Positions 32,547 through 32,994 of a stretch of 39,267 bases of DNA are shown here, piece by piece. A model generated the notes under the pieces. The model saw nothing but the letters and a program-made list of their open reading frames with translations, had not been told where the DNA came from and made no database searches. Position 1 is the first letter of the stretch. Each line of letters begins with the position of its first letter. The position numbers and the translations under genes were made by a program. Source of the stretch: Candidatus Terrybacteria bacterium. GTDB lineage: Bacteria > Patescibacteriota > Minisyncoccia > UBA9983. The stretch covers positions 1 to 39,267 of the forward strand of contig JACQXW010000021.1 of assembly GCA_016208535.1 (NCBI GenBank), given 5' to 3'.

Positions 32547-32667
32547 TTGCCCGGGTGGCGGAACCCGCCGAAGGCGGGCAAGTCCGCCTTAGGCGGGCAA
32601 GTTGGCAGATTTAGTCGCCTTTGGCGACCGCGCACGATTCGCCTACGGCGCATAAACTCAAAATCGT
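32547..32667 (+). pseudogene. copy of nt 1-43 of tRNA-Leu(CAA) split by 38-, 19- and 19-nt hairpin insertions
   Basis: Blocks 32547-32563, 32602-32609, 32629-32637 and 32657-32667 match 32909-32953 at 45/45 nt. Insertions lie at 32564-32601, 32610-32628 and 32638-32656. Confidence 0.8.
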
Positions 32668-32904
32668 ATGATATTTTTATATATTATAGAAAGTAAAAAT
32701 AAGAAATTCAGATATGTGGGTATAACAAAGAACATTAAAAAACGATTTGAGCAACATAATAATGGTTTTAATTTGAGCACGAAAGGATTTAGACCATTTG
32801 AATTAATTTTAACCGAAGAATTTAATAATTATAAAGAAGCGCGAAAAAGAGAAATATTTTTAAAAAGCGGGGTTGGCAGAAAGTTATTAGATAGTTTAAA
32901 ATAA
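32668..32904 (+). CDS. GIY-YIG nuclease domain protein (stand-alone catalytic domain, 78 aa)
   Basis: FLYIIES.....YVGITKNIKKRFEQHN.G (GIY...YVG...R..EH), plus a conserved E in KREIFLK. Confidence 0.8.
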   Translation: MIFLYIIESKNKKFRYVGITKNIKKRFEQHNNGFNLSTKGFRPFELILTEEFNNYKEARKREIFLKSGVGRKLLDSLK

Positions 32905-32910
32905 AACATT

Positions 32911-32994
32911 GCCCGGGTGGCGGAATTGGCAGACGCGCACGACTCAAAATCGTGTGGGAGCAATCCCATGGAGGTTCGATCCCTCTCCTGGGCA
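32911..32994 (+). tRNA. tRNA-Leu (anticodon CAA), class II with long variable arm
   Basis: Acceptor GCCCGGG/CCTGGGC, anticodon stem CACGA/TCGTG with loop CTCAAAA, variable arm GGGAGCAATCCC, T-arm GGAGGTTCGATCCCTCT, discriminator A. Confidence 0.92.

Follow-up and report, generated by a model that had tools for sequence, protein, structure and literature searches.

Genes for tRNAs are known landing sites for integrase-borne islands and group I introns, and the short palindromes dispersed in genomes include the REP elements with their RAYT transposases, the double-hairpin elements (DHEs) of Allomyces mitochondria and the Rickettsia palindromic elements. Closest to the locus reported here are mitochondrial mobile open reading frames (mORFs), which bring a replacement for the end of their host gene and are described in atp6 of Allomyces macrogynus and in atp6, atp9, cox2 and nad3 of Glomus; the element in Glomus atp9 encodes a GIY-YIG endonuclease (PMC3630166). 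A looser relative is SegB, a free-standing GIY-YIG homing endonuclease in the tRNA gene cluster of phage T4 (PMC2330249). In the stretch analyzed here, which comprises 39,267 nt of contig JACQXW010000021.1 (assembly GCA_016208535.1) of a Candidatus Terrybacteria bacterium and is called the window in the following, an open reading frame (ORF) for a 78-aa GIY-YIG nuclease is preceded by a partial copy of a tRNA-Leu(CAA) gene that is interrupted by small hairpins, and is followed by the intact gene. We favor, with moderate confidence, the reading that this arrangement is a homing-type mobile cassette that resides inside tRNA genes and carries a replacement tRNA.

Like a mORF, the cassette places an endonuclease ORF in an essential gene along with a possibly foreign copy of one end of that gene; the gene keeps its function, and the displaced segment, possibly the native one, persists as a duplicate beside the ORF. 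Relatives with empty sites and evidence of lateral origin complete the likeness. Unlike mORFs, the cassette is bacterial and not organellar, its host gene encodes a tRNA or tmRNA instead of a protein, either the 5' or the 3' part is displaced, the nuclease is a 78-aa protein of the Slx1/UPF0213 type, and the leftover copy is systematically interrupted by mini-hairpins. SegB had been named as a loose precedent in a first-pass annotation of this DNA, made from the sequence alone, and it is a precedent in the loose sense only. Like SegB, the ORF is a GIY-YIG gene among tRNA genes, and spread by double-strand-break repair with co-conversion of the flanks is proposed here as well. Seg proteins are larger and possess DNA-binding domains. 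Moreover, they are phage-borne and leave no hairpin-bearing partial tRNA, whereas the family found in the window is nearly absent from viral contigs and of another structural type, closer to Slx1 than to I-TevI. Islands and prophages that integrate into tRNA genes share with the cassette a direct repeat of part of the tRNA and a tRNA that is restored by the copy of the element; in contrast to them, the cassette has no integrase, measures only about 0.3 kb, and shows variable repeat ends and a hairpin-interrupted repeat. We read the locus as a variation on a known theme, a homing-type mobile ORF with a replacement segment, which here resides in bacterial tRNA and tmRNA genes and is combined with a minimal Slx1-like nuclease and hairpin-decorated remnants. 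A literature search by keyword and by palindrome sequence, with most subscription journals outside its coverage, found no published description of the cassette or the palindrome, in agreement with the initial impression that no such system had been described.

Upstream of the ORF, four blocks (32547-32563, 32602-32609, 32629-32637, and 32657-32667), when joined, equal positions 32909-32953 at 45/45 nt. This match comprises 2 flanking nt and nt 1-43 of the tRNA-Leu(CAA), for which Rfam gives the limits 32911-32994 (51.2 bits) and ARAGORN 32910-32995. When the tRNA was aligned locally, with gaps tolerated, to the 456 nt upstream of the ORF, the score was 68.5 (z = 13.6), compared to 20.7 ± 3.5 (maximum 33.6) in 1000 shuffles and at most 35.2 for other pieces of the window. 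The inserted DNA of 38, 19, and 19 nt is best read as four 19-nt GC-rich hairpin units, and according to the ARAGORN cloverleaf the insertion points are the D-loop, the D-loop/D-stem edge, and the anticodon stem/loop edge. The ORF starts with the base right after nt 43 of the copy and ends 6 nt before the intact tRNA. In all these respects, from the 45/45 match through the lengths and places of the inserts to the limits of a GIY-YIG ORF (PF01541, E = 2.9e-17), the first-pass annotation was exact. Its description of the inserts as CGCC-N3-GGCG hairpins needs one addition: this strict motif occurs in the window only at these four units, but a looser definition finds 15 units in the 39 kb. Misassembly, which it had wished to exclude, finds no support at the contig level. 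An identical ParB was retrieved from three Logan assemblies of other sequencing runs (L201, L202, and L203; here and below, L numbers denote loci or contigs), and in the locus alignment, which took in the first two, L201 covers the whole locus with 100% identity and L202 shows no difference before its contig stops at tRNA nt ~46. As far as the assemblies show, the locus is therefore not a one-off chimera.

All elements of the locus are on the forward strand. The first block of the leftover copy (32547..32563, an exact match to 32909-32925) consists of TT and tRNA nt 1-15, that is the 5' strands of the acceptor and D-stems and the start of the D-loop. It is followed within the D-loop by two tandem 19-nt units, each a hairpin with a CAAG tail (32564..32601): unit 1, CCCGCCgaaGGCGGGcaag, has the structure CCCGCC-GAA-GGCGGG-CAAG (32564-32582), and unit 2, TCCGCCttaGGCGGGcaag, the structure TCCGCC-TTA-GGCGGG-CAAG (32583-32601). 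The same hairpin-plus-CAAG form occupies this tRNA position in L041, L031, L024, L014, and others. The second block (TTGGCAGA, 32602..32609) matches tRNA nt 16-23 of the D-loop exactly and precedes unit 3, tttaGTCGCCtttGGCGAC, which carries a TTTA head before its hairpin (TTTA-GTCGCC-TTT-GGCGAC, 32610..32628) and sits at the D-loop/D-stem edge; near-identical units of the tttaGTCGCCtttGGCGAC type are found at the same position in L003, L011, L031, L041, and L208. The third block, again an exact match (tRNA nt 24-32, 3' strand of the D-stem and 5' strand of the anticodon stem, 32629..32637), leads to unit 4, TTCGCCtacGGCGCAtaaa (TTCGCC-TAC-GGCGCA-TAAA, 32638..32656), at the anticodon stem/loop edge, with five of six stem pairs formed and a TAAA tail. 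The fourth block (tRNA nt 33-43, anticodon loop and 3' stem strand, 32657..32667), also matching exactly, runs right up to the ATG and probably serves as the translation start region of the ORF (32668..32904); the junction of CTCAAAATCGT with ATG is also present in L208. Downstream lies the intact tRNA-Leu(CAA), the working copy (32911..32994; Rfam, ARAGORN). Upstream of the leftover copy, a consensus scan detected a promoter-like site, TTGATT-17-TATATT with TG (32502..32530, forward strand). The same stretch is common to the empty-site relatives L204 and L205 described below and is therefore probably the original tRNA promoter. At the gathering level Rfam reported only the four tRNAs of the window, and at E ≤ 10 nothing credible over the leader. 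No Rfam match to a group I intron appeared even at E ≤ 10, and the tRNA downstream is a complete gene of its own.

The start of the leftover copy, CTTGCCCG (32546-32553), is complementary to CGGGCAAG in both tandem units (32575-32582 and 32594-32601), and predicted folds of the leader pair the two, thereby enclosing the D-loop units. These folds are stabler than those of shuffled sequences (z = -2.6 as RNA, -4.2 as DNA). The pairing of CTTGCCCG with CGGGCAAG is probably a local matter, because the tail is a family consensus that is also found beside other acceptor sequences.

The 78-aa product matches the GIY-YIG domain family PF01541 with 63.2 bits (cut-off 22.6). In an alignment of 25 family members R26, H30, and E62 are invariant and Y5 and Y16 nearly so (at least 90%); by analogy to I-TevI, we take these five to be the catalytic residues. 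The AlphaFold model (pLDDT 94.5) has the GIY-YIG fold, a three-stranded sheet flanked by helices, and the proteins matched by it in Foldseek, UPF0213, Slx1, I-TevI, and UvrC, all are GIY-YIG domains. The best match was UPF0213 protein BH0048 (1zg2; 33% identity, E = 3e-4), and the nuclease domain of Slx1 aligned with TM 0.70-0.72 and an rmsd of 1.6-3 Å, compared to TM 0.55 for UvrC and 0.53 for I-TevI. The whole 78 aa are taken up by the catalytic domain, with no other domain and in particular no DNA-binding domain. Owing to this Slx1/UPF0213-like fold and the lack of any further domain, the modeled protein looks like a structure-specific nuclease and not like a sequence-reading homing enzyme, as would suit a family found at a dozen tRNA types and at tmRNA. 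UPF0213 proteins (YhbQ, BH0048) and Slx1 are thus the best structural matches, and the bacterial UPF0213 proteins also have the same size; a point of difference is that Slx1 acts together with Slx4 on branched DNA. The literature searched contained no role of UPF0213 at tRNA genes and no link of it to mobile DNA. PADLOC returned nothing meaningful, PHROGs gave only weak matches to homing endonucleases, and exact look-up of the ORF and MiaB sequences retrieved no record. The gene call for the window locus (P0002) is shortened to 62 aa with a GTG start, and many homologs (P0155-P0303) have N-terminal extensions of 20-60 aa, such as the 105-aa ORF of L008, which probably are read-through of the tRNA remnant and the hairpins.

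Homologs of this nuclease are proteins of 77-79 aa, mostly from Patescibacteria. A scan of one genome per species with a single peptide pattern yielded 313 relatives, of which 80 were analyzed. At 75 of these 80 loci a tRNA or tmRNA gene is encoded on the same strand, within 120 nt of the ORF in 72 cases and within 20 nt in 50. Leucine tRNAs dominate (51), followed by Gln (5), Ser (3), tmRNA (3), and Arg (2), and Asn, Glu, Val, Ala, Pro, His, and Gly occur once each. In 44 loci the ORF precedes the tRNA, a layout typical of Patescibacteria and Ignavibacteriota, and in 28 it follows the tRNA, as is typical of Bacteroidota. On the far side of the ORF a partial tRNA copy with z of at least 6 was detected in 44 of 66 testable loci, a count that uses only the side away from the tRNA; this copy represents the 5' part in the ORF-tRNA layout and the 3' part in the tRNA-ORF layout. 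The proposal that a GIY-YIG cassette had entered the tRNA gene alongside a duplicated 5' segment is thus supported well beyond the window, and loci of the kind that the first-pass annotation wanted sought in other genomes occur in many phyla. Some loci contain a nearly complete second tRNA copy (e.g., L037, L035), in L020 and L025 both halves of the split gene flank the tRNA-plus-ORF unit, and L079, L030, and L052 harbor tandem arrays of ORF and remnant. A profile search against 1.84 billion representative proteins gave 3,421 clusters at E ≤ 1e-10 (~3,400 at 50% identity), and 2.9 million viral contigs contained one relative only.

Over 3,160 aligned nt, leftover copies and their tRNA agree at 94.8%, and 22 of the 64 copies match perfectly, figures which, like a separate mismatch tally, include some neighboring tRNA genes (e.g., in L025, ORF-upstream layout). 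The complete lack of substitutions in the window, which had been taken as a sign that ordinary pseudogene decay is not at work, is accordingly nothing unusual; the other half of that argument, the peculiar inserts, has held up, as they form a conserved and covarying family (see below). The ends of the duplicated segment on the ORF side vary from nt 26 to nt 67 in 5' copies and from nt 1 to nt 60 in 3' copies.

Some family members deserve mention for their settings. In L044, L045, and L057 the ORF directly follows the tmRNA gene, and copies of the tRNA-like 3' part of tmRNA are broken up by hairpin units. The cultured isolate Litoribacter ruber KCTC 22899 (L067, NZ_JAHBGI010000001.1) contains a family member after tRNA-Arg(CCT), and a hairpin-interrupted 5' copy lies upstream of this tRNA. 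Five loci labeled "uncultured Bdellovibrionales" (L017, L029, L036, L073, and L077) share 70-75% nucleotide identity in the flanks and 66-71% amino acid identity in the ORFs with a Moraniibacteriota genome, and their taxonomic labels may be wrong.

The site is filled in the window, L201, and L208 and empty in two close relatives, L204 and L205, whose ParB is 91 and 87% identical to that of the window. In both, the same promoter region is directly followed by an uninterrupted tRNA-Leu(CAA), which provides the empty sites that the first-pass annotation had hoped to see; in L204, miaB comes after the tRNA, as in the window. The tRNA-Leu(CAA) of the empty sites (L204 995-1080, L205 201-287) is of another sequence type, with 59-61 of 84-85 nt identical to the tRNA of the window. 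Compared to L204, the window has a ParB identity of 91% and a tRNA identity of 59/84, whereas the values are 62% and 72/85 for the cassette-bearing L208 and 58% and 71/84 for L009. Both the tRNA of the window and its leftover copy hence resemble the tRNAs of more distant, cassette-bearing relatives, and this incongruence of tRNA and ParB implies that the tRNA gene was swapped together with the presence or absence of the cassette. As judged from these comparisons, a single-copy tRNA gene has been laterally replaced in one lineage. The assumption that the cassette duplicates or carries the 5' 43 nt therefore remains valid as regards the duplicated segment, but has to be refined, since the tRNA type differs from that of the empty sites and the cassette seems to bring the whole tRNA or a large part of it.

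L208 is also the locus with the closest ORF homolog (78% amino acid identity) and has the same RelA-ParB synteny. Its leftover acceptor strand reads GCCGCTG, as opposed to GCCGAGG/CCTCGGC in the working tRNA, so that two alleles stand side by side. In the window the remnant is identical to the working tRNA, and the nearest relatives with empty sites have a tRNA that differs from both. The cassette-free L206 has about 500 nt between tRNA-Leu and miaB, which hold an unannotated 134-aa ORF (1902-2306) antisense to the tRNA and with no Pfam match; the same intergenic spot has here taken up other DNA.

Further signs of lateral movement come from the family at large. L061 and L064 have ORFs that are 98.8% identical as well as identical hairpins and remnants, although their flanking genes share only 84-86% identity, and the similarity stops exactly at the tRNA start and the remnant end. 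Lateral spread thus appears, from these sequences, to have been recent in at least one clade. At eight of the 13 non-Leu loci the nearest ORF neighbor resides at the same tRNA type, compared to 0.55 expected (maximum 5 in 1000 permutations), and 17 of 68 nearest neighbors carry another phylum label; judged by sequence, ORF similarity tracks the tRNA type and not the host phylum. Close ORFs also occur in opposite layouts (L039 with L020, L043 with L033). In syntenic ORF pairs dN/dS ranges from 0.08 to 0.20, and synonymous sites are often saturated (dS > 1). Probably both long residence under constraint and repeated re-invasion of the same tRNA sites have contributed.

To characterize the hairpins across the family, DNA that interrupts tRNA homology was counted as an insert, with no other criterion, which gave 68 inserts in 45 loci. 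Their lengths are mostly 19 nt (26 inserts), 20 nt (19), 30 nt (5), or about double, their G+C content is 68%, and GCC-N2-4-GGC occurs in 51 of the 68. A perfect hairpin of at least 5 bp is present in 59 of 68 inserts, compared to 4.5 in shuffles (maximum 10). Three forms recur: a 6-3-6 hairpin with a CAAG, TAAA, or CAGG tail; its mirror image, with a TTTA or CTTG head before the hairpin; and the perfect 20-nt palindrome CCTGCCTGCCGGCAGGCAGG, with which we group the 30-nt double hairpins of the Gln and Ser loci. In 14 units of the head-plus-hairpin form all stem cells (100%) are paired and the lower three pairs change on both sides, whereas at the top of the stem two pairs are invariant and the third changes once, to G-U. 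The covariation score of 0.419 compares to 0.126 in shuffles, none of 500 reaching 0.419, and pairing collapses if the partner columns are slid; the 14 units were chosen by eye from the insert lists, so that some selection bias remains, and the covariation statistics leave out an alignment of units selected for pairing. At one orthologous site, TCCGCCtaaGGCGGAcagg in L024 and CCTGCCtaccGGCAGGcagg in L026 and L028 differ by two compensated pair changes. Mismatches in the stems are G:T in 10 cases and A:C in 9, which gives no sign of a structure that exists only in RNA.

The inserts prefer loops: 36 are located in loops, 25 at loop/stem edges, and 7 in stems, compared to expected shares of 35, 17, and 48%. 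Recurrent points are the position after nt 9, the D-loop (~nt 15), the D-loop/stem edge (~nt 23), both edges of the anticodon loop, and the T-loop. In L208, which has the cassette closest to that of the window, a unit TCCGCCataGGCGGA is nested in the loop of another one, CCCGCC...GGCGGGcaag (2451-2488).

Hairpins of this kind also occur outside the tRNA remnants. Perfect hairpins number 131 in 438 kb, and 111 of them are at most 150 nt away from the ORF, a density ~50-fold above that elsewhere. With the looser definition NNNGCC-N3/4-GGCNNN, the window contains 15 units compared to 0.9 in shuffles (maximum 5), six of them at most 660 nt from the ORF, and dispersed hairpins are located at 2731, 2752, 14045, 18015, 26687, 33326, 34067, 38420, and 38489. 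An exact direct repeat of 10 nt, cttaattctt, flanks the hairpin at 14045. A double hairpin of 30 nt, TCGGCCcaaGGCCGA plus CCAGCCtcgGGCTGG (33192..33221, forward strand), located some 200 nt downstream of the tRNA, lies in frame in a linker of a miaB-like gene, where its 10 codons encode "SAQGRPASGW". In the DNA alignment of miaB, L206 has an exact 30-nt gap at this place and L204 a different sequence, and the hairpin is present in the same-strain L201. It probably belongs to the same hairpin family and represents the insertion of a unit in a protein gene. The exact palindrome CCTGCCTGCCGGCAGGCAGG was found in more than 120 metagenome contigs (L081-L200) of 29-71% G+C, mostly far from any GIY-YIG ORF or tRNA. 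These copies often stand beside terminators or inside short tandem repeats (e.g., L083, L098, L126, L194). They show no target duplication, no clear flank motif, and only a mild base bias, and the idea that CCTGCCTGCCGGCAGGCAGG lands in loops of larger hairpins was rejected (8% vs. 5% in the null).

The units resemble REP elements, DHEs, and Rickettsia palindromic elements in being GC-rich hairpins of tens of nt that are dispersed in an AT-rich genome, in their occurrence in either orientation and singly or in tandem, in their ability to be in frame (miaB), and in their enrichment beside a nuclease or transposase gene. Unlike these, the units are smaller (15-20 nt) and are found at loop positions of the tRNA cloverleaf. 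Near the units of the window no HUH/Y1 transposase is encoded, and the adjacent gene is the GIY-YIG nuclease.

For cleavage, its target, the repair pathway, the agent inserting the hairpins, and the role of the hairpins, we infer the following course of events under the homing-type reading. The cassette would consist of the minimal nuclease gene and the working tRNA-Leu(CAA), or no less than the first 43 nt of the latter, and the upstream block would be the displaced 5' part of a tRNA-Leu(CAA) gene. Since this block still lies behind what is probably the original promoter, leftover copy, ORF, and tRNA would be transcribed together, and the host would keep a functional tRNA. The nuclease would break or nick cassette-free tRNA genes, with a target recognition that probably relies on DNA structure or generic features of tRNA genes and not on a long sequence. 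Repair of the break from a cassette-bearing copy could use conserved tRNA sequence and, between relatives, the flanks as homology arms, and the whole tRNA region would be co-converted, as in the homing of free-standing endonuclease genes and mitochondrial mORFs. A donor with several tRNA-homologous segments could yield a 5' remnant, a 3' remnant, or both, with variable junctions, as seen in the family. The hairpins might be units of a dispersed family of GC-rich mini-hairpins that pile up by the nuclease gene and enter loop positions of the cloverleaf, where they would be tolerated only in the non-functional leftover copy. There they would split the 43-nt direct repeat into pieces of at most 17 nt (17, 8, 9, and 11), and most recombinants deleting the ORF would be left with a dead, hairpin-interrupted tRNA-Leu(CAA); both effects would stabilize the cassette. 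At many loci the outermost unit of the remnant leaves only 15-23 nt, but the Gln loci, L035, and L037 do not fit this picture. The hairpins could be passengers or by-products, which enter single-stranded loops of structured DNA in the vicinity of the nuclease gene and last only where the DNA has no function, or selected stabilizers, or recognition sites of the nuclease in a REP/RAYT-like manner.

Several points weigh against a homing-type cassette. That the nuclease cleaves at all is something we infer, and it is not evident how a catalytic domain of 78 aa would recognize a specific target sequence. As the cassette restores an intact tRNA, a target within the tRNA would persist in carriers, which leaves self-immunity unexplained. 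Furthermore, the duplicated segment stops at different tRNA positions beside the ORF from locus to locus, and a fixed insertion point is lacking. In the comparison of the window with L204 and L205 gain and loss are not polarized, and the odd tRNA type could be that of L204 and L205. Values of dS > 1 in combination with strong purifying selection fit long residence or a host-useful function as well as they fit repeated invasion. The hairpin units are not exclusive to cassettes, given the more than 120 metagenome contigs with the palindrome, and the 46-70 nt of uninterrupted homology in L027, L035, and L037 imply that repeat-breaking is not the whole story.

The most serious alternative, which we nevertheless consider improbable, is a nuclease-plus-palindrome system, comparable to REP elements and their RAYT transposase, in which the GIY-YIG protein recognizes GC-rich hairpins as DNA structures, cuts there or at single-stranded loops, and thereby seeds or moves the 15-20-nt units. 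It would act mostly in cis by its own gene but also genome-wide, including at in-frame sites, the tRNA copy would mainly be a favored landing pad, and the hairpins would be functional partners of the enzyme and not passengers. The fold, which is like that of the structure-specific nuclease Slx1, and the ~50-fold hairpin density within 150 nt of the ORF, mirrored in the window by the six of 15 units within 660 nt, would find a direct explanation in such a system; a hydrolytic GIY-YIG nuclease alone, however, is unable to join DNA, and most of the 20-nt palindromes in metagenomes have no GIY-YIG ORF on their contig and show neither target duplication nor a clear flank motif. The invariant GCC/GGC at the stem top above covarying lower pairs is what one would expect if a protein recognized the stem-loop, and, much as REPs carry GTAG, the units have a conserved head or tail of 4 nt (YTTR or YAAR), which occurs in two orientations. 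Loop-biased insertion, the nested hairpin in L208, and the balance of 10 G:T to 9 A:C mismatches, with no sign of an RNA-only structure, also agree with it. Hairpin form moreover follows the ORF clade across phyla, since L014 groups with the Patescibacteria clade and L033 and L063 combine Bacteroidota-type ORFs with the 20-nt palindrome, but co-transfer of the hairpins with the cassette explains this match without any recognition. In its widest form the idea becomes a two-part mobile system, composed of a 78-aa Slx1-like nuclease that recognizes its DNA by shape and not by sequence, namely small hairpins and the cloverleaf of tRNA genes, and of the hairpin units as its cis-acting partners, which would invade tRNA and tmRNA genes across phyla, supply a replacement tRNA, and sow mini-hairpins, some of them in frame. 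This, too, we regard as a speculative possibility that is probably wrong; if true, it would be the GIY-YIG counterpart of REP/RAYT and the source of the cross-phylum 20-nt palindrome.

We think it quite unlikely that the cassette is a domesticated, host-useful module whose mobility is historical. Its leader might then serve as regulatory or decoy RNA for the expression or processing of tRNA-Leu or for defense against a tRNA-targeting attack, or the nuclease might help to preserve a tRNA gene that is heavily transcribed and prone to form structures. A host-useful role would be in keeping with the low dN/dS (0.08-0.2) at syntenic positions with saturated synonymous sites and with a leftover copy that has stayed near-identical to the tRNA over that time (95%), its first 16 nt being invariant in L024, L026, and L028. 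However, the closest relatives live without the cassette, and one cassette is near-identical between genomes with diverged flanks. The intact D and anticodon stems with hairpins confined to loops, a layout that implies co-transcription with the tRNA from one promoter, and the stable fold of the leader (z = -2.6 as RNA, -4.2 as DNA) would suit a functional RNA, yet the stems show no G:U-type wobble excess, no known defense proteins or RNA families were matched, and a single function at the RNA level is hard to reconcile with many tRNAs plus tmRNA, with 5' or 3' remnants, and with positions on either side of the tRNA. Very unlikely, in our estimation, is a tiny integrative element that uses att-type site-specific recombination and whose tRNA segments are attL/attR-like repeats: a direct repeat of part of the tRNA does flank the insert and the tRNA is restored, as in tRNA-integrating islands, but the only gene encodes a 78-aa GIY-YIG domain and no integrase or recombinase, the ends of the repeat vary, the repeat is interrupted, and in the window the 5' and not the 3' part is duplicated. 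We give practically no credence to an artifact or chance event, whether a chimeric assembly or a pseudogene in ordinary decay. Short-read assemblies can break at a repeat of 45 nt, and the L202 contig does end inside the tRNA; still, the independent assembly L201 has an identical sequence over the whole locus, the same architecture recurs in dozens of unrelated genomes, the alignment of tRNA and leftover copy stands at z = 13.6, and the inserts are a conserved, covarying family.

A 0.3-kb cassette of this type in Patescibacteria, Bacteroidota, Ignavibacteriota, Planctomycetota, and other phyla would add a habitat for homing-type elements in bacteria and also a route for the lateral replacement of tRNA genes, of importance wherever a very small genome has a tRNA in single copy. 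The enrichment of a conserved hairpin family beside the gene for a nuclease with a fold like that of shape-recognizing enzymes makes a long-standing question testable, the origin and movement of very short palindromic repeats. Should the nuclease turn out to act on the hairpins or to produce them, the system would belong to a new category. The cultured carrier L. ruber KCTC 22899 is a possible experimental system. For genome annotation it is relevant that gene callers shorten the ORF (62 aa in the window) or extend it through the leftover tRNA and that tRNA finders ignore the interrupted copies.

Two minor observations concern the ORF itself. A consensus scan detected a second promoter-like site, TTGGCA-18-TAAAAT (32873..32902, forward strand), inside the 3' end of the ORF and 8 nt before the tRNA; an ORF-internal promoter was rejected as a feature of the family, as the motif is present in 4 of 42 loci with the same layout (window included) and in 1 of 26 controls. 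Lastly, the codons for KSGVGRK, the most conserved motif of the protein (AGCGGGGTTGGCAGAA, 32866-32881), resemble the D-arm of tRNA-Leu (GGCGGAATTGGCAGAC, 32919-32934) at 12 of 16 positions, a likeness that may be a coincidence or a trace of the origin of the gene.

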